64,000 nucleotides of DNA, from positions 2,345-66,344 of the IMG/VR virus record IMGVR_UViG_3300027973_000059; one strand, written 5' to 3'. Shown in pieces: positions 13,697 through 62,960 of this stretch (position 1 is its first letter; every line of letters begins with the position of its first letter). The notes under the pieces were generated by a model, which was given only the letters and a program-made list of their open reading frames with translations, did not search any database and was not told where the DNA came from. Source of the DNA: a virus. Both the position numbers and the translations under genes were made by a program.

Positions 13697-16090
13697 TTGG
13701 CAGATAGTCCTTTATCAATATCAGCAGCAAATAGTAATGGAGAAGCTTTAAAAAAGTTTCAAATTACTACCGATGTATCTTCTAAGAAAGATTACATGTA
13801 CGGTAAAAATGTTGCGCAAAGCATCTACTCTACAATATACGGTAACCAAACTTATTTTTGGTTAAGAAATAATAGATTTAGAAAAAATAGACAAATTGCA
13901 AATGGTAAAATAGACATGAGTGTGTTTATGGACCGTTTAGAAATGAACAGCAAAGCTAACTTTGTAAATATAAATTGGAAATCAATTATTATAGGTAATA
14001 CAATTGTTGCAAGGTTAGTTGGCTCATGGATGAGTAGAAGAGAGAAAGTTACAGTTGTTGCAACAGATAGTGCATCAGCAATGTTAAAAAAAGATGCAGC
14101 TGATGAAGCAGAATTTGTTTATCAAAATAAAGAAGTGCTTTCTCAATTACAGCAAGAGTCTGGTGTACAAATTATTCCACAAGACCAATTTGTAGCTGAA
14201 GATAAAGATGAATTAGACCAATGGATTTCAGAATTTAATCATTTACCGGAAGAGATACAATATAGTATAGGATGTAATAATGTACTTGAAGCCAATGGTT
14301 GGAATGATGTTTTAAAACAAAGACTATTACATGATTCAGCAGAAGTTGGGTTAGTGTGTACATATACTTGGATGGATGAAGAAGGGGAAGTTCATGTTCA
14401 ATGGATTCGTCCTGAAAACGCAATTTATTCATATTCTGATTTCCCAGATTTTAGAGATACAACATATCGTGGACATATCTTGTCTATGAAAATAAGTGAA
14501 ATAAGAGCTAGATATGGTAAAGCTAGTGGTGGAACATTATCTGAAGAAGATATATTTATGTTAGCTCAGTCATGTAAGGAATACCAATTAACGGATAAGA
14601 TTAAGTGGATGCAAGATTGGAATGTTTCTTGGCTAAGACCTTATGATGAGTGGAATATTGATTTAATGAATTTTGAAATTAGAACATTAGATTCTGATGG
14701 ATATACTGTTACCAAAACTAAAAAAAATGGTAGCACAATTATAAGAAAAGGCAAACCAGAAAAACTTGATGAGAATCAAGAATATTTAGAAGAGAAAAAA
14801 TGGAATATATACGAAGGTGTGTATTGTCCTGTTACTCAAAAGATGATTAAGTGGGGAATTAAGAAGAATATGATTCGCCCTCAAGACCCTAAAGAAATTG
14901 GTAATGCTGAATTTTCATATAGTTTATATATGTACGACCCATACGATATGCGTAATGTGGCTGTACCTGAAAAAATAGAAGAACCTATTGAGCAAATGAT
15001 TTTGGCTAGATTGAAGATACAACAAATGGTAGCTAAGATGGTGCCAGCAGGTGCTTCTATTGATGTTGACGCATTACAAGAGCTTGATTTAGGTTTAGGT
15101 GATTCAGTTAAACCATTAGACGTACAAAAGATTTGGGAACAAACTGGTAAACTTTATTATCGTGGTAGAGATGCCGAAGGTAATAGAATACCGGTGCCAA
15201 TCACAGAATTAGCTAATACAGGATTTGCTCCTCAATTACAAGCTTTAATTCAATTATACCAATTCCATTATCAAGTATTAAAAGATGAGCTAGGAGAAGA
15301 CCCTAACTTAATGAATCAAGCTGCACAGCCAAGAGTTGCTGCGTCAAATATAGAGGCTTCAAGAGTTTTAGCTAATAATGCAACCGAATATATGTATGAT
15401 GCATATATTTATGTAATGGAAGAAAGCTGTAAAAAAATAGCTTGTTTATTGAATAAAAGCGTAACATACGGAGCTAAGAAATATAGAGATTTGTTAAAAC
15501 AAGAAGATGTAAAAGATAGGAATTTTGTTGCAACGGTAAAAATGTTACCAACAGAAGTAGAGATAGCAAATTTGCAAGCAATGATGAATAATGCTATTGC
15601 ATCAAATCCTCAATTAATAATATATTTAGACCCTTTTAAAGCAATGAGAATTGCAAAAGAGAATGTGTCATTAGCTGAACTATATTTTAGACAAGCTCAA
15701 AAAAGATATATAAAAACAGAGCAAGAAAAAGCTCAAGCCAATAGTGAACAAAATGCACAGATTCAACAATCTAGCATGCAAGCTAAGGCTCAAGGGGATG
15801 CTGCTTTGTTAGATAAGCAAACGCAAGCTAAACAAAGAGAAATTATAATTCAAGGTATGTTTGATTTAGCTAAAGCTAGTATACCAATGCCAGTAGAATT
15901 AAAACCTTTAATAGCTGAAATGTTACAAAATGTTGAAATGCCATTAATGATGGATAATCAACAAATGGAACAAGCTATCCAACAACAAGAAATGGAAGCT
16001 CAGCAACAAATGATGCAACAACAAGGTCAACAAGGTTCTCCTGAAGAACAACAAATGATGATGGAACAACAACAAATGCAACAACAATAA
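13697..16090 (+). CDS. portal protein
   Basis: 797 aa after terL; crAss-type synteny; Q/M-rich tail; TTG start. Confidence 0.8.
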   Translation: MADSPLSISAANSNGEALKKFQITTDVSSKKDYMYGKNVAQSIYSTIYGNQTYFWLRNNRFRKNRQIANGKIDMSVFMDRLEMNSKANFVNINWKSIIIGNTIVARLVGSWMSRREKVTVVATDSASAMLKKDAADEAEFVYQNKEVLSQLQQESGVQIIPQDQFVAEDKDELDQWISEFNHLPEEIQYSIGCNNVLEANGWNDVLKQRLLHDSAEVGLVCTYTWMDEEGEVHVQWIRPENAIYSYSDFPDFRDTTYRGHILSMKISEIRARYGKASGGTLSEEDIFMLAQSCKEYQLTDKIKWMQDWNVSWLRPYDEWNIDLMNFEIRTLDSDGYTVTKTKKNGSTIIRKGKPEKLDENQEYLEEKKWNIYEGVYCPVTQKMIKWGIKKNMIRPQDPKEIGNAEFSYSLYMYDPYDMRNVAVPEKIEEPIEQMILARLKIQQMVAKMVPAGASIDVDALQELDLGLGDSVKPLDVQKIWEQTGKLYYRGRDAEGNRIPVPITELANTGFAPQLQALIQLYQFHYQVLKDELGEDPNLMNQAAQPRVAASNIEASRVLANNATEYMYDAYIYVMEESCKKIACLLNKSVTYGAKKYRDLLKQEDVKDRNFVATVKMLPTEVEIANLQAMMNNAIASNPQLIIYLDPFKAMRIAKENVSLAELYFRQAQKRYIKTEQEKAQANSEQNAQIQQSSMQAKAQGDAALLDKQTQAKQREIIIQGMFDLAKASIPMPVELKPLIAEMLQNVEMPLMMDNQQMEQAIQQQEMEAQQQMMQQQGQQGSPEEQQMMMEQQQMQQQ

Positions 16091-17980: not shown

Positions 17981-19393
17981 ATGGCAGGAATACCTACCTC
18001 AAATATTTTGCAGCCGGGTTCAATCTCGTTGCAAACCCAGAATAGGCAACTTATGGTTGACCTACAATTATTAACTCCACAGTACTACAAGCAATACACT
18101 CAAAAGTATGGCAATGAAGATTTTACATGGTGGTTAGCTGCTCATAGCGGCATGGAAGAAGTTAAAAACTTAAACTACTTCTGGTTTGAAAACCGCGGTA
18201 AATTAATGCCGGGTGTTACAAACGAATCTACAGTTGTTGCGGCAGCTGGTGCTTCTATTACATTAACTTTAGGACAAGAAGCTTACTACAACAGTGGTAC
18301 TCAAACTCCTTTAAGAGTTAATGAAACTTTGCGTGTTGCATCTTCAAACATTGAGGGTGTTATCGTAAGTATTGATGATTCTGTTCCTTACGCTTGGACT
18401 TTTGTAGTTGCTCCTAAGCAAACTTCTCAAGGTTTCCAATCAGCTGGTTCTGGTTCATTATTAGCTGGTGAGGTTTTATTATTCGGTGGTGACGCAGATG
18501 CTGGTGAAGCTTCTCAACAAATCAATCCTTTAATCCAATTGGACCAAAGATATGATAACTATGTAACAGAAATTCGTGATGGTTGGTCTAACACTGACTT
18601 AGCGCAAATGGCTGAAACATATTATGAGTTCCCTGTATCTCCAGATATGGCTCAAAATGGCGTTACTGCATTTACTTACAAAGGAATGTACAAGACTCTT
18701 GTTCGTTTCAAGAATAACGTAGAGAATAAATTAATGCGTGGTAATTTACAAAATAACACTGCAATTGATTCTAACTCACAAGGTTCAGTAGGTATCATTC
18801 CTAAAGTTGTTGCTGACGGTGAAACTGTTGGTTACACTCCGGGTACATTAGATATCGCTAAATTACATGAGATTACTCGTATCATGGACGTTAATGGTTG
18901 TGCTAAGCAATCTGCTTGGTTAACTGACATTTTCCAAAGACAAGATTTCTCTGATGGTATCTTCGCTGCTTACCCAGCTGGTGCTTTCGTTTATGGACAA
19001 GGTGAGAAGTCAAAAGAGGCTTCTGTTGCTTATGGTTTCCAAGAAATCTTTATCGATGGATATTTATTATCTGTAAAGAAGTACGCTCAATTCAACACTG
19101 AGGTTACTACTGGTTTAACTCCAAATGTAGATTACTTCCGTAATTTCGGATTAATCTATCCAATGGGTGAAACTAAGGATGCGAAAACCGCTCAAGTTTA
19201 CAAGAATATCACTATTATGTATCAACAACCTCCTCAAGGTGGTACTGTTGGTAACGGTATTCGCGTATGGCAATATGGTGGTGGTTCTCCAAACCCTACA
19301 GATGGTACAATGACTAATCAAATCGCGATGATTACCTACAGAGGTACTCGTGTTTGTGCAGCAAACCAATTTATCATCGTTCAAGGTAACTAA
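17981..19393 (+). CDS. major capsid protein
   Basis: 470 aa, high-expression codon bias, position after scaffold, followed by a terminator. Confidence 0.85.
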   Translation: MAGIPTSNILQPGSISLQTQNRQLMVDLQLLTPQYYKQYTQKYGNEDFTWWLAAHSGMEEVKNLNYFWFENRGKLMPGVTNESTVVAAAGASITLTLGQEAYYNSGTQTPLRVNETLRVASSNIEGVIVSIDDSVPYAWTFVVAPKQTSQGFQSAGSGSLLAGEVLLFGGDADAGEASQQINPLIQLDQRYDNYVTEIRDGWSNTDLAQMAETYYEFPVSPDMAQNGVTAFTYKGMYKTLVRFKNNVENKLMRGNLQNNTAIDSNSQGSVGIIPKVVADGETVGYTPGTLDIAKLHEITRIMDVNGCAKQSAWLTDIFQRQDFSDGIFAAYPAGAFVYGQGEKSKEASVAYGFQEIFIDGYLLSVKKYAQFNTEVTTGLTPNVDYFRNFGLIYPMGETKDAKTAQVYKNITIMYQQPPQGGTVGNGIRVWQYGGGSPNPTDGTMTNQIAMITYRGTRVCAANQFIIVQGN

Positions 19394-54387: not shown

Positions 54388-54618
54388 TTATTTTTCATCA
54401 TCATTATTTTCGGGGATTATAAATTTACATTCCTTAACAGGGTTATTAGCCCATTTATTATACAGGTCATACATCTCCTCAAATCTTTCTTGGTCATACC
54501 AAGCATTATGATATAGTTCAGCAATAATCATTTGCCTTTCAAAAGGAGTGAAGTCAGCAAATGTAGTAAAATTAGCAAGCTCTATTGGTTTGCCTAAAAC
54601 ATCTTCAGTATTTATCAT
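54388..54618 (-). CDS. hypothetical protein
   Basis: ORF with TAAATTAAACAAAATG start context. Confidence 0.65.
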   Translation of the reverse strand: MINTEDVLGKPIELANFTTFADFTPFERQMIIAELYHNAWYDQERFEEMYDLYNKWANNPVKECKFIIPENNDDEK

Positions 54619-54628
54619 TTTGTTTAAT

Positions 54629-54832
54629 TTAAAAGTTTACATCTACGGTTAAAACATGCACCTTGCCTACTTTATTATATTTTAATACTTCCGGCAAATG
54701 CATGTTATGATTCAATCTATATTTAATTGCCTGCTGTGATAATTGTGCATTAGGATTTTTTCTATTTGCTCTAAAATGATTTGGGTCAATTTTAGATGCA
54801 TATTCTGATACACTAATTTGTTTTGTCTTCAT
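54629..54832 (-). CDS. small HTH-like protein
   Basis: ISVSEYA...LSQQAIKYRL. Confidence 0.5.
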   Translation of the reverse strand: MKTKQISVSEYASKIDPNHFRANRKNPNAQLSQQAIKYRLNHNMHLPEVLKYNKVGKVHVLTVDVNF

Positions 54833-55050
54833 TATATTATTTCTTTTAATAAAATTTTAGTAATAGATGGATTTGCAATTGACCATTTTACTTCTTCAAA
54901 TGCTTCTAAAGCCTCTTGTTTAGCTTTTTCTTTTGTTTCTACTGAATCATTTGTATAATACAATACACATTTTTCTTGTTTGCCATCCAAATATACTCTA
55001 TACCAATTTTCTTTGAATCCTTCTGTAAGGGTTAATGTTACTTCTTTCAT
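54832..55050 (-). CDS. hypothetical protein
   Basis: Coupled ORF. Confidence 0.6.
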   Translation of the reverse strand: MKEVTLTLTEGFKENWYRVYLDGKQEKCVLYYTNDSVETKEKAKQEALEAFEEVKWSIANPSITKILLKEII

Positions 55051-55053
55051 TGT

Positions 55054-55290
55054 TTAATTTTTAATTTGTTTAAAATCTTCTTCAAATACAATTACCAAAA
55101 TATTTGCATAATCATCTTGCACTAATAATCTATAATCTACTACTAGATGCACATTATTTCCATTTTCATCAGTATGGATATATTTATCACCTACATTTAA
55201 AGGGATTGTGCATTTTATATCTAATAATAAGTTTTCAAATGATGGATTTCTTTTAATCCATCTAAATTGTAATTGTGTTTCTTTTTCCAT
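55054..55290 (-). CDS. hypothetical protein (paralog of 55469-55675)
   Basis: Shares MEKET...NVGD...DE.G. Confidence 0.6.
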   Translation of the reverse strand: MEKETQLQFRWIKRNPSFENLLLDIKCTIPLNVGDKYIHTDENGNNVHLVVDYRLLVQDDYANILVIVFEEDFKQIKN

Positions 55291-55468
55291 TGTTTTTTAG
55301 TTTAATTTATTAATTTTAATTTCTTCAATTTGTCCCTCTGCTTGTTCGTCCTTTTCTCTTTCTTCAATATCTTCTTCGGATTCCCAATCGCAATGGTCAA
55401 GACAATCAGGACAAATATCCATTTCGGTCATTGTGGTATATGCTCCACAGCAAGTTGAATAAGGCATA

Positions 55469-55675
55469 TTAAATATATTTTAATGTTATTACTAAATTGT
55501 TTGTTACTGAATTAAATAATCTTTTACTTGTCATTAAAAATTGAGTTTGACCTTGTTCATCAAGGTAGCTAATATAATCTCCTACATTAGGAGAAATAGT
55601 AAAAGGTAGTTTAAGTGTAATATATTGCCCATCTTCTTGCATGTGCAAATAATGGATTGATGTTTCTTTTTCCAT
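55469..55675 (-). CDS. hypothetical protein (paralog of 55054-55290)
   Basis: Shares MEKET...NVGD...DE.G. Confidence 0.6.
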   Translation of the reverse strand: MEKETSIHYLHMQEDGQYITLKLPFTISPNVGDYISYLDEQGQTQFLMTSKRLFNSVTNNLVITLKYI

Positions 55676-55678
55676 AAT

Positions 55679-55915
55679 TTAATTGTTAAAATGTTTATCA
55701 AAAATTTCGTTAAAATAGTTTTCTCTGTTGGATGCTACGCAGTTTACTTCTTCTGCAAATTCATCCCATTCTTTATCGGATTTAATTACGCCCCATTTAT
55801 CGGCTAATGCTTGCCACATAGTTATAAAGTCTTCCATATCTAAATTGGGTAAAGCTTCGCTCTTAAACATCTTAAAGAATGTTTCGCATAGTAGTTTCTT
55901 AGCTGTTTTTTCCAT
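55679..55915 (-). CDS. hypothetical protein
   Basis: Likely start MEKTAKK. Confidence 0.55.
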   Translation of the reverse strand: MEKTAKKLLCETFFKMFKSEALPNLDMEDFITMWQALADKWGVIKSDKEWDEFAEEVNCVASNRENYFNEIFDKHFNN

Positions 55916-56045
55916 GGCGTAATCTTTTAAGTTCAAAATAAAGGTGAGCCGTAAAATACACGCAACAAGCAAGCGGGACGCTAATGAAAAAGAATTTCAA
56001 CATTTCAAATACAAAAATTAAAGTTTCTTTAATTAATAGTTTCAT
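55899..56045 (-). CDS. small hydrophobic protein (48 aa)
   Basis: Read manually; directly after the promoter at 56068. Confidence 0.5.
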   Translation of the reverse strand: MKLLIKETLIFVFEMLKFFFISVPLACCVYFTAHLYFELKRLRHGKNS

Positions 56046-56067
56046 AGTTATTTTTTTAGTTTGAGGA

Positions 56068-56100
56068 CAAATATATGTATCATTTTGGTTATAGCAAAAT
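56068..56100 (-). promoter_or_regulatory. Bacteroidota-type promoter
   Basis: TTTG-N19-TATATTTG on the minus strand. Confidence 0.7.
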
Positions 56101-56117
56101 AAATTAATTTAATTAAT

Positions 56118-56285
56118 TTACTCTGAAAGATATGTTTCCCAATTGTGGTTGTCTATTTCTATCTGTAATTGTTCCTTTAATTTTTTAATCTTCCCCATTA
56201 CAGCATAAACATTTTTAGCTTGGTTTAGCTCTAATTTTTTGTTAAGAGCTTTAATTTGATTTTGTAGTTTTTTAATAGTTTTCAT
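56118..56285 (-). CDS. small coiled-coil protein
   Basis: Likely start MKTIKK. Confidence 0.5.
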   Translation of the reverse strand: MKTIKKLQNQIKALNKKLELNQAKNVYAVMGKIKKLKEQLQIEIDNHNWETYLSE

Positions 56286-56464
56286 TTTAGATAATTTAAT
56301 AATTATAGAATTAGTATATTTTATATTAAGCAAATTAGAAAAAAATAAATTTAAAATATGCCTAAGTGGATGCTTTTTTTGTTGCCTACCACTTATAGAG
56401 AATTACGGAATTGTAAATTTTTACAAAAAAATGTGCGTTTTACGAATGCGCACCCCTCGTTAAC

Positions 56465-57001
56465 CTAACTAGGTAAGTATTGTTTTGGTATATTAGTATT
56501 CAGTAATCTGTAGCCATTCTGTGCATACTGAGTAAGTTTTTCTGTCAATACCTGCTTGAAGTAATCCGGGTGGTTCTGCCAAACCTCTTTTAATGGCATT
56601 TTAAAGCCTATTTCTCGGTACTTCTCTTCGTTACCTATCAAGATGGCTTTCTGCATTTTTTTAGTCAATGTTTTGGCGTGTAAATCATCATCTCTTTTCT
56701 TTACCAATTTTTCAACCGCCTCATCAATGTAACGCGTTAAATTCATGTCTAATTCCAATGTTCTACCAATGAGCTGTGCATCCCATGTAATGGGTGGTAA
56801 TGTCAGACAATAGGTTTCTGCTAGCTTAATCAATTGCCTGCTAGCATCGGTCCCATCATGGCAGTAATCAGTTTCACCACCAATACCTCTATTCTCTGTG
56901 GTCCCACATTTAACACCATCAACCCAAATATTTGCTTGGAAGCAATAAGTTTCCTCGCTTAATTTGTCATAGAATTTAAAGTTTTTAAGTTCAATTTTCA
57001 T
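56465..57001 (-). CDS. hypothetical early protein
   Basis: SEETYCFQA...ENRGIGG; ATG about 20 nt after a hammerhead cut site. Confidence 0.7.
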   Translation of the reverse strand: MKIELKNFKFYDKLSEETYCFQANIWVDGVKCGTTENRGIGGETDYCHDGTDASRQLIKLAETYCLTLPPITWDAQLIGRTLELDMNLTRYIDEAVEKLVKKRDDDLHAKTLTKKMQKAILIGNEEKYREIGFKMPLKEVWQNHPDYFKQVLTEKLTQYAQNGYRLLNTNIPKQYLPS

Positions 57002-57014
57002 GTTATAATTTTTT

Positions 57015-57070
57015 GGTTAATACGGGCTATAAATAACCCGTTTCAAGGATTCACCTATCATCAGTTAACC
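57015..57070 (-). ncRNA. hammerhead ribozyme type I (variant stem II base)
   Basis: GGUUAA-CUGAUGA-UAGG UGAAU CCUU-GAAA-CGGGUUAU UU AUAGCCCG-UA^UUAACC. Confidence 0.8.
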
Positions 57071-57273
57071 TAATCTAAAATGAATCTAATAATTAATGTG
57101 TCATTGTTAAATACATTAATATTCAACATTCGTTCAAATCTTCTAATGTCAATTGGTTTTATTTCTTGCCTAATAGATTCTGCTATAAAGTCTTCATCAC
57201 TGCAAGTTAAACAATTGAAATTATCATCCATTTTATCAACGTCTATTGAATAGACTTTAATTGAATTTATCAT
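57070..57273 (-). CDS. hypothetical protein
   Basis: TAG stop overlaps hammerhead stem I. Confidence 0.6.
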   Translation of the reverse strand: MINSIKVYSIDVDKMDDNFNCLTCSDEDFIAESIRQEIKPIDIRRFERMLNINVFNNDTLIIRFILD

Positions 57274-57274
57274 T

Positions 57275-57658
57275 TTATCTAATTTTAAAATTTGTAAATT
57301 GTTTATCTAATTCAAATGCATTCATCCATGGGACATTGATAGGTTCCACTCCAAAGTAATTTATAGGATTACCTAGAATCTCACATTCATCAATACCATC
57401 TATTTGTTGGGTGCAATATTCTCTGACATCATCTTTACCCCAAGTAAGCAAATATCCAATACCCCATATCTCGCAATAGGGTTCATCATTTGCACTTTCT
57501 TGATGAAAGTTAACATCTAGTTTAGTTCCATCTTTAAGTTCAAATCCATGCCAAAAATCACCTGTGTCACCGGCATTTAAATCAAACATAAAGATATGGT
57601 CTTGATAATGCAAAGTCAATACTTTGTTATCATAATCAACTACGAATTTGTTTTCCAT
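57275..57658 (-). CDS. hypothetical protein
   Basis: ORF in early operon. Confidence 0.65.
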   Translation of the reverse strand: MENKFVVDYDNKVLTLHYQDHIFMFDLNAGDTGDFWHGFELKDGTKLDVNFHQESANDEPYCEIWGIGYLLTWGKDDVREYCTQQIDGIDECEILGNPINYFGVEPINVPWMNAFELDKQFTNFKIR

Positions 57659-57669
57659 GATTTTTAATT

Positions 57670-57933
57670 TTAAAATATTAAAGATTGTTCGTTATAAAAT
57701 GGTTTGTAATCATCCATAAAAGCCTCAAATTTTAGCTTATCATTTAAGGTGGTACATTCTATTACATACTTATCATGTAGCCTTAATTCGTCTTTAATTG
57801 CATCATGCAAATATGCTGTTTGTTTTTTATCACATTCATTTGCTAGCATCTTAAATAATTCATCTGCATCAAATTCTTCTAGAATTCTAGCAATCCAATT
57901 TTCTAATACTTCAGTAGGTATTTTGTTTTTCAT
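57670..57933 (-). CDS. hypothetical protein
   Basis: ORF in early operon. Confidence 0.65.
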   Translation of the reverse strand: MKNKIPTEVLENWIARILEEFDADELFKMLANECDKKQTAYLHDAIKDELRLHDKYVIECTTLNDKLKFEAFMDDYKPFYNEQSLIF

Positions 57934-57943
57934 TTTGTTTAAT

Positions 57944-58216
57944 TTAAAATCGTTTATAATATTTATTGAATCTTTTTTTTGTTTGCATATACCAAGTTTT
58001 ATCCTCGGTAGATTTTATAATTACCCAATATAAAAATTTACAATAGCATTCACCATCACCTTCATGATAATCAGATGCAGTGAATCTACCTTTATGTCCA
58101 TCGTAATGAAGACCACAATAAGGTGCAGTTTCGTAATCGTAATTTTTAATATAATCTAGTCTATTATCTAGGTAATAAAATAGATTGTAAAGAGAGCGTA
58201 ATAAATAATTTTTCAT
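57944..58216 (-). CDS. hypothetical protein
   Basis: ORF in early operon. Confidence 0.6.
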   Translation of the reverse strand: MKNYLLRSLYNLFYYLDNRLDYIKNYDYETAPYCGLHYDGHKGRFTASDYHEGDGECYCKFLYWVIIKSTEDKTWYMQTKKRFNKYYKRF

Positions 58217-58221
58217 TTTGT

Positions 58222-58419
58222 TTAAATTTTATTAAGTTCAAAAATTAAATCACAAGCGGATAACTTTGGCAAATTGTGAAGCTCACAATAAGCTAAATAA
58301 AGAACATTTGCCCCATCTATCCAATCATCATTTTTAAATGTTTCACTTGCTTTATACCATGCCTCCATAAATCCTTTTAAGAATGCTAAATGCTCGCTTT
58401 GTGTTTGTGCGTTTTTCAT
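58222..58419 (-). CDS. hypothetical protein
   Basis: ORF in early operon. Confidence 0.6.
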   Translation of the reverse strand: MKNAQTQSEHLAFLKGFMEAWYKASETFKNDDWIDGANVLYLAYCELHNLPKLSACDLIFELNKI

Positions 58420-58452
58420 TGTGTGTTTGTTTAAAGGTTATTTGTTTAATAA

Positions 58453-58710
58453 TTATACTGCGATAGTCCAATCAGTAACTTCAAAACTTACATTTGAACT
58501 AACCGAATATCCTTTTGCTCTTAATCTACTTGCCACCACAGGCATATAGGTAAATTCTTCTACCGACCACCCAAAGGCGGGCGCTCTATAACAAGTTTCA
58601 AATCGGGTGTGCAACCTATCCCCTAATTGCTTGATAATTCGGTTTTCTAATTCAGTTAAAAAAAGTTCTTTCTTTTCTTGTGGTGTCATTGTTTGTGTTA
58701 ATGTTTGCAT
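58453..58710 (-). CDS. hypothetical protein
   Basis: ORF in early operon. Confidence 0.65.
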   Translation of the reverse strand: MQTLTQTMTPQEKKELFLTELENRIIKQLGDRLHTRFETCYRAPAFGWSVEEFTYMPVVASRLRAKGYSVSSNVSFEVTDWTIAV

Positions 58711-58727
58711 TTTGTTTAATTTATTAT

Positions 58728-58979
58728 TTAAAAATTTGTTTCATTTAATACAGCAATTCTTTCAACTTGAATATTCCAAGTTTCTAAATAAGCAAATAAA
58801 TATTCATCACTTTTTTGAATTTCGTTTTTAGAATAATCATTTGCCAATTCATCTATATCATACCACCTATCCCACATACTGGTTAGAATATAATTTCTCA
58901 ATCCTTTTAAGGTAAAAAACTTTGGAGGTTCAGCCAATTCATCTTTGTCAGTAATTTTGTAAACGATAATTTTTTTCAT
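58728..58979 (-). CDS. hypothetical protein
   Basis: Start re-placed at MKKIIVY (conserved initiation motif). Confidence 0.6.
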   Translation of the reverse strand: MKKIIVYKITDKDELAEPPKFFTLKGLRNYILTSMWDRWYDIDELANDYSKNEIQKSDEYLFAYLETWNIQVERIAVLNETNF

Positions 58980-58989
58980 TTTGTTTAAT

Positions 58990-59406
58990 TTAAAATTTGA
59001 TAAATTGATAATCGTATTCACCTTCATATGCTCCAATAAAAATTGAATCATCACCTAAATTTATTTCATCAAGTTCTTCGGGGTCTGATAATGTAATTGC
59101 GCCACAGATACGACTATGCCATTCCTTTTTGTTTAGGATTGGATGTACTTCATTTACATTGCAAAAAATCATTACACCATAAAGTTTTTCAGCATTACGA
59201 ATAAAAGTGAATGAACCTTGGTCTTCACCTTTCTCATAACTGATGCATCCTAAACTTGATTCAATATTCTCAGCACCCGTTTGAATTTGCACTAATGATT
59301 CTAAATAATTTTGTGCTTCTAAATCATTCTTAAATTTTCTTATGTAAGCTAGGTTTTCAGATGAATAACCTTCGCCATTCCATGTTTCTACAATTGCGTA
59401 TTTCAT
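58990..59406 (-). CDS. hypothetical protein
   Basis: Start re-placed at MKYAIVET (conserved initiation motif). Confidence 0.65.
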   Translation of the reverse strand: MKYAIVETWNGEGYSSENLAYIRKFKNDLEAQNYLESLVQIQTGAENIESSLGCISYEKGEDQGSFTFIRNAEKLYGVMIFCNVNEVHPILNKKEWHSRICGAITLSDPEELDEINLGDDSIFIGAYEGEYDYQFIKF

Positions 59407-59416
59407 TTTGTTTAAT

Positions 59417-59605
59417 TTAATTGTGACTAAATGCGATGCTTTGTACATAAATGCCTTTGCCCCAAAACTTTTCGTAAATTTTTTTAATTTTAAATTTGTC
59501 TTGGTTTGAATTTTTAAAAATTGGATTGTTTAACAAATCAATTTTTTCAGTTCTAAAAATTTCTCCGTTTGTTGATGTGATTTTTGCGAATCTGTAAGTT
59601 TTCAT
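59417..59605 (-). CDS. hypothetical protein
   Basis: First ORF after a hammerhead. Confidence 0.55.
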   Translation of the reverse strand: MKTYRFAKITSTNGEIFRTEKIDLLNNPIFKNSNQDKFKIKKIYEKFWGKGIYVQSIAFSHN

Positions 59606-59643
59606 TTTGTTTTTTCAGTTTTTAATGTGGTGCCTCCACAATT

Positions 59644-59694
59644 GATTAAGACCACCCGAAGGTGGTTTCGTCCATTAGGACTCGTCAGTTAACC
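59644..59694 (-). ncRNA. hammerhead ribozyme type I
   Basis: GGUUAA-CUGACGA-GUCC UAAU GGAC-GAAA-CCACC UUCG GGUGG-UC^UUAAUC; perfect core. Confidence 0.95.
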
Positions 59695-60602
59695 TAGATA
59701 ACATTAGCGTATACTGATTCAAATAACTTCTCATCTAGTGTACGTTGTTGGTCAAAAGTTTTTTTCAATTTGCCATGGATTAATTCATTGAATGCATTGT
59801 ATACTATCCATTGGTTTGGATTAGTATTAAGCAATCTAGTTTCACGCTCAACTACATCAAAGATGAAACGAGCATTTGCACTAGGCTCCGGATTCTTATC
59901 AGATGCCTCATATTTAAAAATACCTAGGTTCTTCGCAGTTACCTTAACATAATCCTCAAGATTGTAAACCGGACGCTCAGCAAGTACTTCAAATTTGCGC
60001 TTCAATGTAAAGAATTCGTTGTCCATAAATTGACTAACAATCGTATCCAATTTAGGCATAACAATATCAGCAATGGCACCCGAATGCTTAACAGAAAAAC
60101 CAATGTGAGTCTGTGCAACATGTAAGCCATTGTCACATACCTTGCGCCAAAAACCAAAGGAACCACTAGTCTTGCATGAACCATCATAAGAATTAACAAA
60201 GCGCAACATAGGACGCAGGATATCCTTATCACCTTTAACCTCTACTTTATAGCGGTCATCAGCTAGGATATAATCCACTACAAAAGAACGATTGTCGCGG
60301 TTAATACTACGCTGTTGGTAGTAGATGTCAGCGTCAATCAACTTTTCTTCCACGCCTAAAAAGAACTTCTCATTAGGCAGGTGGCCATAAGAATTAGAAA
60401 CCACATTCACGATTTGATTCTCGCAAATGATTGCATTCTCTAAACCTCTTCTAGAGCTTAATCCGGTCAATTCTTGCAATGGGACTACCTTGGACTCAAC
60501 CAAGACATTATCTTGTCTAGAATTGGCTAAAATGTGGCTTAGTTTTGATTCTGCTGAATCAATAGAATGCGCTGAGAAATTGTCGTTAAAAATACTTTTC
60601 AT
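59694..60602 (-). CDS. DUF932/DUF945-family protein
   Basis: VSNSY..LPN, NSYDGS, FWRKVCDNGL, KHSG, W.VYNA; start re-placed at MKSIFND. Confidence 0.75.
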   Translation of the reverse strand: MKSIFNDNFSAHSIDSAESKLSHILANSRQDNVLVESKVVPLQELTGLSSRRGLENAIICENQIVNVVSNSYGHLPNEKFFLGVEEKLIDADIYYQQRSINRDNRSFVVDYILADDRYKVEVKGDKDILRPMLRFVNSYDGSCKTSGSFGFWRKVCDNGLHVAQTHIGFSVKHSGAIADIVMPKLDTIVSQFMDNEFFTLKRKFEVLAERPVYNLEDYVKVTAKNLGIFKYEASDKNPEPSANARFIFDVVERETRLLNTNPNQWIVYNAFNELIHGKLKKTFDQQRTLDEKLFESVYANVI

Positions 60603-60641
60603 GATAATAGTGCAGTTTTTTATGTGGTGACTCCACATTAT

Positions 60642-60707
60642 GGTTAAGACGGGTAAGTGGGGGAACTTACTCCGTTTCGGCTATATCTAAGCCATCCTCA
60701 GTTAACC
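60642..60707 (-). ncRNA. hammerhead ribozyme type I (extra U after A9)
   Basis: GGUUAA-CUGAGGA-U-GGCU UAGAUAU AGCC-GAAA-CGG A GUAAGU UCCCC ACUUAC CCG-UC^UUAACC. Confidence 0.85.
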
Positions 60708-60710
60708 TCG

Positions 60711-60962
60711 TTACATCAATTCATATCCGTATACAATCTTACCATCTATAAACAATGGTGTGTATTCGCCATGACTAGCAACCATATCATCTAATTCATA
60801 GAAAGTGGTTGATTTTGCTATACCTAATTCATGACAAACGGCAATCACAGTTCCATCTCCTCCAAAAATTGGATGCTCATAAAATTCAATCAATTGCTTT
60901 TGATTGTTGACGATTTCACCATATTTAAATGGATTTAGGCTCATTAATTTTGAATAATTCAT
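60711..60962 (-). CDS. hypothetical protein
   Basis: ORF ending 3 nt before a hammerhead. Confidence 0.65.
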   Translation of the reverse strand: MNYSKLMSLNPFKYGEIVNNQKQLIEFYEHPIFGGDGTVIAVCHELGIAKSTTFYELDDMVASHGEYTPLFIDGKIVYGYELM

Positions 60963-60980
60963 TTTGTTTAGTTTAATATA

Positions 60981-61223
60981 TTATTTAATGGTAATAGGTT
61001 CAGAATAAAAGGCAAAAATCTCTCTAGAATAAGATGCGTAAGGGGTTTGCAATGCCTCTCCATTTTCTAGCATTTGTTCTATCTTTTTTTTCTTATAAAA
61101 GTTACTTAAAACTTTAATACCTTTTTCAATAGATAAGATTTCTAAATCTTTGGTAATGTTATCCTCTCTCATAATAACATAAATGGGCTTCGACATTTCT
61201 TTTTTGTTTTGTGTGTTTTTCAT
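60981..61223 (-). CDS. hypothetical protein
   Basis: ORF in early operon. Confidence 0.6.
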   Translation of the reverse strand: MKNTQNKKEMSKPIYVIMREDNITKDLEILSIEKGIKVLSNFYKKKKIEQMLENGEALQTPYASYSREIFAFYSEPITIK

Positions 61224-61228
61224 TTTGT

Positions 61229-61399
61229 TTAGTTTTGAAGGTTAAGTGAATTGATTTGAATACGAGCATTTAATAGCTTCCATTCATTGTAAGCAGATTT
61301 GAAATCTTTGCCTAATTGAATGTGAGCATTAATAAATTTCTCATAGCTAGATGGGGAACGTTTAATGCGTCTACCACTAGTAGTAAATACTTTTTGCAT
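61229..61399 (-). CDS. small protein (56 aa)
   Basis: Read manually: MQKVFTTSGRRIKRSPSSYEKF...; ATG about 20 nt after a hammerhead cut site. Confidence 0.6.
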   Translation of the reverse strand: MQKVFTTSGRRIKRSPSSYEKFINAHIQLGKDFKSAYNEWKLLNARIQINSLNLQN

Positions 61400-61413
61400 A
61401 ATAGTTTTTTTTT

Positions 61414-61462
61414 GGTTAAGACGCCCGCAGGCGTTTCGTCCATTAGGACTCGTCAGTTAACC
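61414..61462 (-). ncRNA. hammerhead ribozyme type I
   Basis: GGUUAA-CUGACGA-GUCC UAAU GGAC-GAAA-CGCC UGCG GGCG-UC^UUAACC; perfect core. Confidence 0.95.
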
Positions 61463-61686
61463 TACTTACATAATGTAATATTTATACCTTCCGCTTCACC
61501 TTCAAGCCATCCTCTGCCATTGTGAAATACTAGAGGTACATTCAATTTGTTAGCTACCTCAATTGAATCGGAGCTAATTTTTCCTTGAAGCATAATCCTA
61601 CCGCCAAACGCTGTTTCAATGCTTACTGCATAAAATAAATCTAAATCGATTTTTAAGGCGCTTAATTTTTTAAATAATTCATTCAT
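61462..61686 (-). CDS. hypothetical protein
   Basis: Start re-placed at MNELFKK; bracketed by two hammerheads. Confidence 0.65.
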   Translation of the reverse strand: MNELFKKLSALKIDLDLFYAVSIETAFGGRIMLQGKISSDSIEVANKLNVPLVFHNGRGWLEGEAEGINITLCK

Positions 61687-61701
61687 AATTGATAAATTTT
61701 T

Positions 61702-61763
61702 GGTTAATATGCACATCCTTTATGGATGCACATTTCGGCTAATTTAAGCCTCATCAGTTAACC
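61702..61763 (-). ncRNA. hammerhead ribozyme type I
   Basis: GGUUAA-CUGAUGA-GGCU UAAAUU AGCC-GAAA-UGUGCAUCC AUAAA GGAUGUGCA-UA^UUAACC. Confidence 0.9.
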
Positions 61764-61776
61764 TTGTTATTTGTAT

Positions 61777-62001
61777 TTATTTACCTTGAATTATTCTAAT
61801 TGCTTGTAATTTTTTATAATATTCATCCGCAATCATATAATGTACTTCTGCTTCATTTACATCATTTTGTTGACTAGCTTCTGCTTTCCATTTAAGATAT
61901 GCACTTACATATCTTGTTTCTAAATCATCCATTTGCAAAGCAGTTAATTCAATCATGTAGTTGCCATTACTTAATTTGGTTCCGTTAATTACTTGTGACA
62001 T
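61777..62001 (-). CDS. hypothetical protein, first gene of the early operon
   Basis: ORF between two hammerheads. Confidence 0.65.
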   Translation of the reverse strand: MSQVINGTKLSNGNYMIELTALQMDDLETRYVSAYLKWKAEASQQNDVNEAEVHYMIADEYYKKLQAIRIIQGK

Positions 62002-62014
62002 GTTATATAGTGTT

Positions 62015-62066
62015 AGGTTTCGCCATTCTGTGGCTCATCAGTACTGCGAATATTAGCAGTAGACCT
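62015..62066 (-). ncRNA. hammerhead ribozyme type III
   Basis: AGGUC^UACUGC UAAUAUUC GCAGUA-CUGAUGA-GCCA CAGAA UGGC-GAAACCU. Confidence 0.92.
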
Positions 62067-62403
62067 TATGGTCAGAAATTCAATATAAGTAAATTGGATA
62101 GGTGGGAGTCTTGATAACGATATTACATCGTGGCAGTGTCATTTGTGGGTTGCTCTCATTGTGTGAGGCATTGCCGTTGTCCATCTATAAGGCGGTGAAC
62201 CTTATCGCTTATATTTGCATCCTTTCAAGCTATCCCGTTGGCACCATGTGTATTGGAGTGAGTCGTTTAGGGCTATTCAGCCGACTGATTACATAGTCTA
62301 GAGGTAAGCAGTAAATTTGACCAAACTCAATGGTGGCGCGGGTTTTACTAGATATTTCAAAGAACGATGTTGCAACATTGATTGGGGGCTTTCCCCCGAT
62401 TGC
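62062..62403 (-). ncRNA. putative structured leader RNA (about 340 nt)
   Basis: GC-enriched, no credible ORF, several stems, boxA-like GUUCUUUGAAA. Confidence 0.5.
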
Positions 62404-62407
62404 ATAG

Positions 62408-62438
62408 CAAATATATACATATACTTTGATTCAGCAAA
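62408..62438 (-). promoter_or_regulatory. early-operon promoter
   Basis: TTTG-N19-TATATTTG on the minus strand. Confidence 0.75.
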
Positions 62439-62599: not shown

Positions 62600-62960
62600 A
62601 GCAAATTAGATTTTTTAATAATGCGTAACTCATTGACCAAACTAAATACCTTAGCATTACTAAATCTATTAGCAATCATGCATACCATACCAACCAATGC
62701 CACCAAGCTACAACCAATACCCCTGTATACCCTATCTATATACCCATACCATACAGCATAGAAAAGTGCATGACCCAACCCACACCCACGCCACCACCAA
62801 TACCATGACCATGACCATAGCCCATACCCCTCAAACTCACTGAAATCAACAACCTCAATCAATCAATGCATGGACCAAGAAACAAGACCTACCCGGTGCA
62901 GGAGAATCAAAGCCCCAAAAAAAAATCGCGGTCATTTATATATAGCGGACCCCTGAGGAA
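62600..62960. other. strand-skewed C/A-rich non-coding spacer
   Basis: G-poor runs such as CCCAACCCACACCCACGCCACCACCAATACCATGACCATGACCATAG. Confidence 0.65.

Follow-up and report, generated by a model that had tools for sequence, protein, structure and literature searches.

Type I hammerheads with a common stem I in the early operon of an uncultured freshwater phage: putative cutters of the early transcript

An uncultured freshwater phage, represented by a 66,344-bp virus record, carries six hammerheads within 5.1 kb of the minus strand, five of type I and one of type III. Their most likely function, with cleavage predicted, is the cutting of the early polycistronic mRNA 16-25 nt before start codons. 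All five type I copies have the same stem I, and a survey of related sequences indicates that this uniformity is best read as an inherited trait of a hammerhead subfamily under strong purifying selection, so that the compatibility of the fragment ends would be a by-product. We regard as fairly probable this account as a whole, in which the array would cut the early transcript into defined mRNAs.

Hammerheads and genes of the early operon

Both strands of the window (the whole 64-kb stretch of DNA analysed) were scanned for type I hammerheads with a pattern that demands CUGANGA and GAAA, each followed by a hairpin (stem II and stem III, respectively), then UH, and at least 4 bp in stem I. Exactly five matches were obtained, all on the minus strand (Table 1); control scans of 20 mononucleotide shuffles of the window gave no match in 18 and one match in two. 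These are the five hammerheads that a previous sequence-only reading had located, and its description of a uniform stem I beside variable stems II and III also held. The core is present in all copies as CUGA(U/C/G)GA and GAAA, with UA or UC before the cut site. The 5' arm of stem I is GGUUAA in 5/5 copies and the 3' arm is UUAACC in four, the copy at 59694 having UUAAUC and hence a G.U pair, while five different stem III and four different stem II sequences were read. The sequence GGTTAACTGA occurs exactly six times in the window, five of them at the type I hammerheads; the remaining one lies on the plus strand at 18918 and is not followed by a hammerhead core.

Rfam searches at gathering scores found no hammerhead match in the window. 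In E-value mode (E up to 10), RF00163 listed three of the five type I copies, at 31.5, 23.1 and 20.3 bits for a cut-off of 34. RAGATH-1 (RF03152) gave a single match, to a copy of the relative L030 (34.2 bits, cut-off 56.3). With RF00163, RF00008 and RF03152 the core sequence and the three-helix layout agree, but every score lies below the gathering score. The type I copies show the conserved core and the covarying closed stems II and III of their class at scores under the RF00163 gathering score, and the type III copy shows its core, closed stems I and II, an open stem III and conservation in relatives. The canonical 10.1-11.1 pair directly follows A9 in three of the five window copies, the exceptions being c and e. 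An extra U before stem II, as in copy c, was seen in 38 of 164 members of the GGUUAA subfamily, and a U10.1-U11.1 start of stem II is reported as active (PMC3088659). When the elements were folded in isolation, the minimum-energy structure had the full three-helix shape in 3/5 copies and lacked it in those at 60707 and 59694. Using a pattern free of any demand for stem II or stem III pairing, 137 distinct matches were collected from other viral contigs; both stems were paired in 122 of them vs 7 of 685 sequences with shuffled inner segments. Orthologues of hammerhead c in L026, L027, L037, L038 and L041 have compensated changes in stem III. The type III layout of closed stems I and II and open stem III recurs in L034-L038 (type III scan), its loop II CAGAA is conserved and its stem II is compensated (GCCA/UGGC, GUCG/CGAC, GUCA/UGAC, GCUG/CAGC). 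Motifs, positions, conservation and covariation are thus directly visible, and by these features the hammerhead motifs are real, the cleavage itself being predicted.

The promoter-like pattern TTTG-19 nt-TAnnTTTG, which follows the promoter consensus of the Bacteroidetes literature, had 11 matches in the window vs 6.0 expected, and so the motif is weak on its own. Homology with most relatives ends at about 62385, just downstream of this site. The leader is not unusually structured, since its fold z-score is 0.23; a 211-nt metatranscriptome contig identical to 62135-62345 may be DNA carry-over. The blocks bounded by the six hammerheads contain 1, 1, 3, 1 and 9 ORFs, a Pfam family is absent from 9/10 early ORFs, and no terminator-like sites were found on the minus strand in the intergenic sequence between hammerheads. 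Three of the five window type I hammerheads overlap a TAG stop codon, and the start codons that follow the type I copies have no Shine-Dalgarno-like sequence. The window has TAAACAAAATG in eight exact copies, every one of them on the minus strand from 54616 to 61231. Flanks and start codons were counted in a set of 164 distinct GGUUAA-type hammerheads: A precedes the 5' arm in 96% and follows the 3' arm in 97%, and the first ATG lies 10-19 nt past the 3' arm in 131. A hairpin after the hammerhead, like the one where the DUF932 gene could start (at 60638, or alternatively at the in-frame ATG 60602), was present in 7/164 and only in the phage's own clade.

Table 1. Features of the early operon (minus strand) in window coordinates
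Feature	Position	Strand	Remarks
Promoter-like site, TTTG, 19 nt, TAnnTTTG	62408..62438	-	Pattern match, head of early operon
Non-coding leader, G+C 41-45% (richer)	62063..62396	-	Composition; would be cut off by the type III hammerhead
Type III hammerhead, predicted cut 62062/62061	62012..62069	-	RF00008 35.8 bits, E 5.4e-4, gathering score 48.5
ORF1, 74 aa, no family	61777..62001	-	
Type I hammerhead a, predicted cut 61708/61707	61702..61763	-	RF00163 23.1 bits, E 0.43
ORF2, 74 aa	61462..61686	-	G of stop TAG also in stem I of hammerhead b
Type I hammerhead b, predicted cut 61420/61419	61414..61462	-	RF00163 31.5 bits, E 7.3e-4, cut-off 34
Three small ORFs, no family	61399-61229, 61223-60981, 60962-60711	-	TAAACAAAATG before the latter two
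Type I hammerhead c, predicted cut 60648/60647	60642..60707	-	CUGAGGA separated from stem II by an extra U; stem III with a bulged A
Hairpin AUGUGG-AGUCA-CCACAU, then AAAAACUG	60622..60638	-	Conserved, adjoins hammerhead c
DUF932 protein gene	59694..60638	-	Pfam PF06067, E 4e-15
Type I hammerhead d, predicted cut 59650/59649, 3' arm UUAAUC	59644..59694	-	5' half identical to hammerhead b
Hairpin, second copy, UGUGG-AGGCA-CCACA, then UUAAAAACUG	59626..59640	-	
Nine small ORFs without intervening hammerheads	57070..59605	-	Exact TAAACAAAATG before 5 start codons
Type I hammerhead e, predicted cut 57021/57020	57015..57070	-	U.U pair at stem II base
ORF, 178 aa, no family	56465..57001	-	First cistron of last fragment

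Stem I in relatives and other viral contigs

The clade set, composed of the window and 14 related loci (one without hammerheads), contained 35 hammerheads, 28 of them distinct. Among the distinct sequences the 5' arm was GGUUAA in 28/28 and the 3' arm UUAACC in 26/28, the two exceptions forming wobble pairs, whereas 23 stem II and 21 stem III sequences were counted, all pairing. GGUUAA was kept in 30/30 of the further hammerheads of the 13 related loci, and orthologues in relatives with 77-97% DUF932 identity have the same stem I. An identical stem I was found in at least 120 other viral contigs; 107 of 120 lack any 100-nt match to the DNA of the window, with G+C of 29-50%. The check suggested by the sequence-only reading, whether stem I is uniform within each related genome but differs between genomes, thus gave uniformity within the genomes and also the same stem I between them.

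Compensated stem I variants are found in other contigs, for instance GAUUAA/UUAAUC and GGUCUA/UAGAUC, which indicates that the helix can change; GUGUAA/UUACAC is the form upstream of DUF932 in L039 and L040. In the wider family, the same position relative to start codons is held by at least 60 different stem I sequences. Orthologues were defined through their flanking context, giving small samples of 21 GGUUAA pairs and 14 pairs with another stem I, which are not independent. Change per site in the GGUUAA pairs was 0.014 for stem I, 0.252 for stem II and 0.176 for stem III, and in the other pairs 0, 0.066 and 0.059. This second sample includes GUCUGA, GUCUAA and AUGUAA, found together in mixed arrays, and stem I is thus the slowest-changing helix also where arrays mix different stem I sequences.

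A further sample of 103 same-locus pairs was picked without reference to most of stem I. Mutually incompatible stems I were found in 66 pairs and compatible ones in 37, vs 5.3 expected; the same stem I was shared in 28, where 1000 shuffles gave 3.6 on average and 13 at most. Common descent accounts for this excess of shared stem I, and selection for compatibility would do so too. Within a single array, that of L112, GAUUAA/UUAAUC is mixed with GGUUAA/UUAACC.

Fragment ends and alternative explanations

The predicted cuts would release fragments of 288 nt (61707-61420), 772 nt (61419-60648), 998 nt (60647-59650) and 2629 nt (59649-57021); the first and third are the two whose circularisation the sequence-only reading had envisaged, and their extents agree. 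Any fragment between two type I hammerheads would start with 5'-UUAAYC and end with GGUUAA-core-stem II-stem III-UH, ends that are complementary by construction, so the geometric premise of that reading, that a fragment can re-form a hammerhead from its own ends, stands. In ViennaRNA ensembles the end-pairing probability of the 288-, 772- and 998-nt fragments was 0.55-0.79 at 37 C and 0.61-0.98 at 15 C, values that are upper bounds because the model omits the entropy cost of closing a long loop. The fragment after hammerhead d begins with UUAAUC, which by calculation pairs with GGUUAA about 3 kcal/mol less strongly. For the bare 6-bp helix a Kd of about 1e-5 to 1e-3 M was calculated between 15 and 37 C, and joining of separate fragments is consequently unlikely.

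These ends could be the very reason for the uniform stem I, if excised fragments rebuilt a hammerhead from their own or each other's ends and were ligated, by the ribozyme or by a host RtcB-type ligase, into exonuclease-resistant circular or re-joined mRNAs. Type I hammerheads do circularise retrozyme RNA, the precedent to which the sequence-only reading had pointed; in vitro the reported experiments gave 1-3% alone and 30-80% with RtcB (PMC7229834). Since the flanking A residues are conserved on both sides of stem I, a re-formed hammerhead would retain its surroundings; no copy-specific pairing of loop II to a flank, of the kind that a foreign leader would break, was found, and the excess of compatible same-locus pairs points the same way. 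We nevertheless judge this explanation decidedly unlikely. The phage genome gave 0 matches to the RtcB family PF01139, which was detected in 10 of 14 control genomes including Bacteroides thetaiotaomicron, and the weaker start after hammerhead d would not favour closure. Stem I is shared with unrelated contigs and is equally frozen in mixed arrays, and compatibility is therefore unnecessary to explain its invariance. The sequence-only reading had counted mutually incompatible stems I within one genome as evidence against circularisation: such combinations are common in the wider family (the 66 pairs above, and the L112 array), and stem I is uniform within the related genomes. Its interpretation is thus upheld in its geometry and not in singling out compatibility as the selected trait. 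Two metatranscriptome runs gave 12 thin RNA contigs, none of them running back on itself, a coverage too thin for the absence to count, and contigs do not reveal RNA ends. Circular or spliced products of phage hammerhead arrays are not a new idea: Perreault et al. raised it in 2011 and describe a search in three arrays in which none were detected (PMC3088659).

That one element was recently duplicated within this genome, the simpler alternative offered by the sequence-only reading, would fit the exact 32-nt 5' half common to hammerheads b and d. It is rejected as extremely improbable: stems II and III differ throughout the five copies, and orthologues of every stem III type occupy the same gene position in the relatives with 77-97% DUF932 identity, so that the copies predate the divergence of these phages, and these orthologues keep stem I. 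The same 32-nt repeat (59665-59696 = 61433-61464), which differs in the L026 orthologues, could instead point to hammerheads as junctions of exchangeable gene cassettes, where one common stem I would let recombination or gene conversion yield working hybrids and would become uniform across gene-exchanging phages. Homology blocks with relatives begin or end at the hammerhead edges 61463, 61419, 60708, 59695, 59642 and 57071, DNA contigs of run X6 contain variant genomes whose joints lie at 59695, 59642 and, inside hammerhead a, 61738, the stem III type CCACCUUCGGGUGG is paired with four different stem II sequences, and the same stem I recurs in many otherwise dissimilar contigs. We still find this an unlikely cause. 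Block ends, counted in 7 of 16 loci (HSPs of at least 150 nt), numbered 13 for the 5 hammerhead junctions and 26 for the 10 other ones, or 2.6 per junction in both, so that they are not more frequent at hammerheads than at ordinary junctions between genes. Among paralogues of the same genome, the 5' halves had a mean distance of 0.294 vs 0.308 when permuted (348 of 2000 permutations as low, not significant), and orthologues between genomes were closer, at 0.20; moreover, selection for future recombinants is second-order. Lastly, selection might act on the sequence itself, if a host or phage factor recognised either the helix GGUUAA/UUAACC or the 5' end UUAACCA... that processing leaves, for example in starting translation, in protection or in handling of the 5' end. 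The fixed spacing between the 3' arm and the start codon and the conservation of stem I across unrelated contigs are compatible with it, and in some fungal and plant RNA viruses self-cleavage of a 5'-UTR type I hammerhead is described as needed for translation start (PMC13725137). Yet the many different stems I of the wider family occupy the same place before start codons, TAAACAAAATG precedes the start of eight further cistrons of this operon that have no hammerhead there, and no candidate factor was found among early ORFs that mostly lack a Pfam family; we consider such recognition very unlikely.

Known hammerhead systems and cutting of the early transcript

The closest known systems are the phage arrays described by Perreault et al. 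in 2011 (PMC3088659), in which closely spaced hammerheads on one strand flank single genes or short runs of genes, of unknown function, within a phage operon, as the six minus-strand copies do here, and for which the cutting of long phage transcripts to gene-length mRNAs was proposed. Clustered hammerheads that flank prophage genes are reported to cleave 2-kb transcripts in vitro and have been proposed as processors of long phage transcripts (PMC3088659; PMC6765202). Compared with the main-text description of the 2011 arrays, the present one differs in having a single 6-bp stem I with flanking A in all type I copies, in the location of these copies 10-19 nt before start codons without a Shine-Dalgarno-like sequence, and in the type III copy that heads the same operon. 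Retrozymes and viroid-like RNAs, as presented in PMC7229834 and PMC7761336, share the unit released by two cuts, with 5'-OH and 2',3'-cyclic phosphate ends that rebuild the ribozyme, and are circularised mostly by RtcB or tRNA ligase, 1-3% by the ribozyme alone. In those systems one repeat unit supplies both ribozymes as its copies, and the RNA is non-coding or a replicon. In contrast, the ribozymes that bound a unit here share only stem I and the core, with different stems II and III, the units consist of distinct protein-coding cistrons from a DNA phage that has no ligase gene, and neither identical repeated bounding ribozymes nor a tandem repeat of units was found in the array. The type I hammerheads of RNA-virus 5'-UTRs (PMC13725137) likewise lie just upstream of the coding region and define by cleavage the 5' end of the translated RNA, as predicted here; unlike the phage array, those systems have eukaryotic hosts, cap-independent translation and RNA genomes.

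Concerning the cutting of the early transcript, we infer cleavage in vivo, its effect on mRNA fate and a reason for the invariance of stem I. Transcription of the early operon on the minus strand probably starts at a promoter near 62400, and six self-cleaving hammerheads, one of type III and five of type I, would be part of the transcript, the type I copies directly behind stop codons. Each type I cut would leave a downstream product that starts 5'-OH-UUAACC-A-rich leader-AUG and an upstream product whose 3' end is formed by the stem III hairpin and bears a 2',3'-cyclic phosphate. Stem I, a 6-bp A/U-rich open helix with an unpaired A on both sides, would tolerate almost no change and would thus be passed on unchanged to all copies, whereas stems II and III, as more stable hairpins, could drift through compensated changes; the invariance would then come from the lack of mutational slack in a weak open helix. 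Compatible fragment ends may permit non-covalent end pairing and a small ligated fraction. In this phage the long early transcript would then be converted into single-gene or few-gene mRNAs with short unstructured leaders and structured 3' ends, and as separate mRNAs these would be expected to have uncoupled stability and translation.

Hammerheads and anatomy of the early operon

Our own scanner required CUGANGA and GAAA, each followed by a hairpin (stem II and stem III respectively), then UH, and 4 bp or more in stem I. It returned five type I hammerheads from the window and no others (a to e), all on the minus strand; on 20 shuffled sequences it gave no match in 18 cases and one match in two. 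The five copies with 5' arm GGUUAA described in the sequence-only reading were thus all recovered, with UUAACC as 3' arm and UUAAUC in d only. Both fragment coordinates proposed there were also correct, and the cut sites delimit fragments of 288, 772, 998 and 2629 nt. Rfam gave no match in the window at gathering scores. In E-value mode it listed three of the five type I copies (a, b and d) and one type III hammerhead, which lies at the head of the operon, 5' of ORF1, and was absent from the earlier list.

Some copies depart from the canonical form. In copy c an additional U precedes stem II and an A is bulged in stem III, and stem II of copy e begins with U.U, a start reported as active (PMC3088659). 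The minimum-energy fold of the isolated element was the full hammerhead in three of the five, c and d failing. Of the 164 distinct hammerheads of the GGUUAA type, 38 have such an extra U, placed between CUGANGA and the first pair of stem II; since it recurs it is presumably tolerated, and no mention of it was found in the passages of PMC3088659 consulted.

Further copies were collected with a pattern that fixed stem I and the core without requiring stems II and III to pair, yet both stems pair in 122 of the 137 distinct matches listed, versus 7 of 685 with shuffled inner segments. The protein of the DUF932 gene, the cistron between c and d, led to 16 related loci (63-97% identity), 15 of which contain hammerheads, 32 in total by the scanner. 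Orthologous sites in these relatives show compensated changes in stems II and III, and the type III copy recurs in five loci (L034-L038) with loop II CAGAA kept and four compensated versions of stem II. On these three lines, the pairing contrast with shuffled segments, the compensated changes and the type III recurrence, we take the ribozyme motifs to be real; so is the stem I that they share.

Features of the early operon (window coordinates)
Feature	Position	Strand	Remarks
Promoter-like site	62438-62408	-	Upstream of the G+C-richer leader
Non-coding leader, ~330 nt	62063-62396	-	G+C 41-45% in a ~32% genome
Type III hammerhead	62069-62012	-	Rfam 35.8 bits, cut-off 48.5, E 5.4e-4
Type I hammerhead a	61763-61702	-	Own scanner; Rfam E-value mode 23.1 bits
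Type I hammerhead b	61462-61414	-	Own scanner; Rfam E-value mode 31.5 bits (cut-off 34)
Type I hammerhead c	60707-60642	-	Own scanner
Type I hammerhead d	59694-59644	-	Own scanner; Rfam E-value mode 20.3 bits
Type I hammerhead e	57070-57015	-	Own scanner
Hairpins (UGUGG, 5-nt loop, CCACA)	60622-60638, 59626-59640	-	Directly 3' of hammerheads c and d

The operon reads, 5' to 3', type III hammerhead, ORF1, a, ORF2, b, three ORFs, c, a hairpin, the DUF932 gene, d, a second copy of the hairpin, nine small ORFs, e and a 178-aa ORF. The hairpin is conserved. Both of its copies are followed by AAAAACUG, and the first overlaps the start of the longest possible DUF932 ORF; the hairpin also lies 3' of the orthologous copies in L026, L027, L028, L030 and L032, so that 7 of the 164 GGUUAA-type copies have it. 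Cistrons without a preceding hammerhead usually start after TAAACAAAATG, whose eight exact copies all belong to this operon and stand 5' of eight small ORFs (54616-61231, minus strand). These sites look like a second, ribozyme-free type of cistron junction. The non-coding leader is nearly unchanged in a relative in sequencing run X6, with 2 differences over 443 nt, and is covered by a 211-nt metatranscriptome contig with 0 differences; in most relatives of the DUF932 clade homology ends exactly at its start (~62385). It is not unusually structured (fold z-score 0.23) and lacks an Rfam match, which ruled it out as a structured RNA. A G/T-rich stretch made up of GGT/GTG-like words (62680-62870, minus strand; 84.6% conserved in the related locus L026), with a strong strand skew that amounts to a plus-strand GC skew of about -0.57, lies 5' of the early promoter region. 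A related genome in run X6 (window 59694-58994) has neither hammerhead d nor the two ORFs that follow; a terminator-like 40-nt hairpin-plus-T-run behind the DUF932 gene takes their place.

The window spans bases 2345-66344 of a 66,344-bp IMG/VR virus record whose completeness is rated at 100%, and has a G+C content of 32.5%. Pfam identified a BT4734-like/PriCT_1 primase, a collagen-repeat tail fibre with a Peptidase_S74 chaperone domain, and glycosyltransferases in the window. IMG/VR classes the genome as having inverted terminal repeats. No protein-primed polymerase was detected among the 10 large ORFs of the whole record scanned with Pfam, six of which have no Pfam family. The phage database search returned a single match, a 66-nt stretch in the DUF932 gene of Flavobacterium psychrophilum phages, and the runs in which the DNA occurs come from freshwater, river and lake metagenomes. 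Cistron leaders are A-rich and free of Shine-Dalgarno-like words. Together with the TTTG-N19-TAnnTTTG promoter-like site, whose consensus we take to be of the Bacteroidetes type, these leaders fit a Bacteroidota host. Among genome contigs the only DUF932 match was L278, a 13-kb contig in a Candidatus Taylorbacteria bin, with a gene 91% identical to that of the window and two GGUUAA/UUAACC hammerheads; it was dropped as a host indication, being most likely a phage contig in the bin.

Stem I in relatives and in the wider family

In the window and 14 related loci (one of them, L036, has no hammerhead) there are 35 hammerheads with 28 distinct sequences. All 28 have GGUUAA as 5' arm and 26 have UUAACC as 3' arm, the two exceptions (UUAAUC and UUAGCC) still forming wobble pairs. 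Stem II exists in 23 versions and stem III in 21 beside this single 5' arm. Recent duplication of one element, offered as a simpler cause of the uniformity, is rejected because stems II and III are so diverse. The expectation that stem I would be uniform within genomes and different between them was correct in its first half, whereas the second half failed, since the same stem I is found across related genomes. At L039 and L040 (DUF932 identity 63-64%) the hammerhead before the gene has GUGUAA/UUACAC instead. The Rfam model overlooked known copies in the relatives' whole records, including one in the record of one relative (G001), so four whole records of the L039/L040 group were searched with our scanner; each contains one or two hammerheads, all GUGUAA, and with so few copies they say little on uniformity.

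Beyond these loci, the GGUUAA/UUAACC form was found in at least 120 further viral stretches, with G+C contents of 29-50%; 107 of the 120 listed have no 100-nt DNA match to the window. Co-resident copies in the listed loci carry the same stem I in 136 of 156 scanner matches, and the exceptions include fully compensated forms within the same arrays (GAUUAA/UUAAUC, GGUCUA/UAGAUC). A wider sample, drawn with a pattern of the core, the stem II closing pair and the first two 3'-arm bases only, comprised 175 hammerheads in 113 loci (92 new and 21 earlier ones, among the matches listed) with at least 60 versions of stem I. After removal of loci sharing an identical copy, 28 of 103 same-locus pairs had identical and 37 mutually compatible stems I, versus means of 3.6 and 5.3 in 1000 shuffles (maximum 13 for both), so arrays tend toward a house stem I. 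However, 66 of the 103 pairs are incompatible, and single loci may hold seven copies with six versions (L012) or four copies with four (L021). Judged from these pairs, hammerhead arrays of phages do not in general require compatibility.

Possible roles: transcript processing, exchange or circular mRNA

Among the 164 distinct hammerheads that carry this stem I, an A stands 5' of the GGUUAA arm in 96% and 3' of the UUAACC arm in 97%; in 131 of them the first ATG follows 10-19 nt past the 3' arm. In the window, a hammerhead overlaps the TAG stop codon of the upstream ORF at three junctions. Taken together, these facts describe the element as a module that would end one cistron and give the next a 16-25-nt A-rich leader. 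A check for orphan acceptor sites gave a single candidate, at 13856, since minus-strand TTAACCAWAA in the window is otherwise always a hammerhead 3' arm. The most likely role of the array is processing of the early transcript, with predicted cleavage immediately 5' of start codons. Later reviews still name transcript processing as the suggested role and call the function open (PMC6765202).

The uniform arms could also reflect use of the ends. It is quite improbable, in our estimation, that the phage makes covalently circular early mRNAs (288, 772, 998 and 2629 nt) or joins non-adjacent fragments. If it did, one shared stem I would let any 5'-OH end fit the 3' end of any cleaved ribozyme, a widespread single stem I would be a shared ligation address, and the outcome would be protein-free, ribozyme-defined circularisation or splicing of mRNA in a bacterial virus. 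The claim that the ends of a fragment can pair again holds in ViennaRNA ensembles of the 288-, 772- and 998-nt fragments, where the 5' UUAACC is predicted to pair with the 3' arm with P 0.55-0.79 (37 C) and 0.61-0.98 (15 C), in a model that makes no charge for closing long loops. Pseudoknot pairing of loop II with the flanks, specific to each copy, equalled that in permuted data (0.23 vs 0.23 downstream, 0.23 vs 0.22 upstream), so there is no such pairing for a foreign leader to disturb. The bare stem I helix has a calculated Kd of about 1e-5 to 1e-3 M, which makes the joining of separate molecules unlikely. Retrozymes were circularised to 1-3% by the ribozyme alone and to 30-80% by RtcB, as reported in PMC7229834; no RtcB was found in the phage genome. 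Spliced or circular products of successive cleavage and ligation were already proposed in 2011, neither being detected in that study (Perreault et al., PMC3088659), and in our literature search no publication reported circular RNA from the hammerhead arrays of phages. One search found 24 runs, two of them RNA, which contained 0.06 and 0.05 of the sampled words and gave 8 and 4 contig pieces; none turned back on itself, a sample too thin to speak for or against circles, and contigs are unable to show RNA ends. An RNA contig joining 60972 to 61777 was considered as RNA joining and is read instead as a variant phage genome, because of its ~94% identity to the window and a joint that is not at any cut site.

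Exchange at the hammerheads at the DNA level has anecdotal support: b and d have an exact 32-nt 5' half in common, many homology blocks stop at hammerhead edges, and the joints of variant genomes in run X6 fall at hammerheads or within them. Yet block ends number 2.6 per junction at hammerheads and at ordinary gene junctions alike, and hammerheads as recombination hot spots were rejected for being no hotter than other gene junctions. The likeness of 5' halves among same-genome paralogues does not exceed that of permuted data either (348 of 2000 as low), so that concerted evolution is not significant. Breaks in DNA contigs of run X1 at 59667-59694 and 61435-61462 are explained by the exact 32-nt repeat and carry no biological meaning.

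What holds stem I constant was approached through orthologues, defined by homologous flanks on both sides. Across 21 GGUUAA pairs the per-site change was 0.014 (stem I), 0.252 (stem II) and 0.176 (stem III), and across 14 pairs with another stem I, several from mixed arrays, it was 0, 0.066 and 0.059, both samples being small and non-independent. Even so, the helices rank in the same order in pairs for which mutual compatibility cannot be the cause. Stem I is an open helix of 6 bp, mostly A-U, with a calculated duplex energy of -4.1 (37 C) or -6.5 kcal/mol (15 C), and a single G.U would cost about 3 kcal/mol. From these calculated energies we infer that it has scant room for mismatched intermediates, which longer G+C-rich hairpin stems would tolerate. 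The uniformity of stem I is best accounted for by inheritance under strong constraint within a widespread hammerhead subfamily, the compatibility of ends probably being a by-product.

The role of phage hammerhead arrays has been a standing question since 2011. This locus and at least 120 contigs with the same stem I offer a clean and abundant natural test set: the 6-bp arms are identical, the predicted cuts fall at a fixed distance upstream of the start codons, and the hosts probably do without Shine-Dalgarno-led initiation. If the compatible ends were used, this would be the first hammerhead-made circular or re-joined mRNA in a bacterial virus and would supply a natural blueprint for making circular RNA by ribozyme in bacteria. 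If the arms serve cleavage alone, the array adds a well-defined subfamily and a clear case of uneven helix evolution, in which stems II and III drift beside a frozen stem I.
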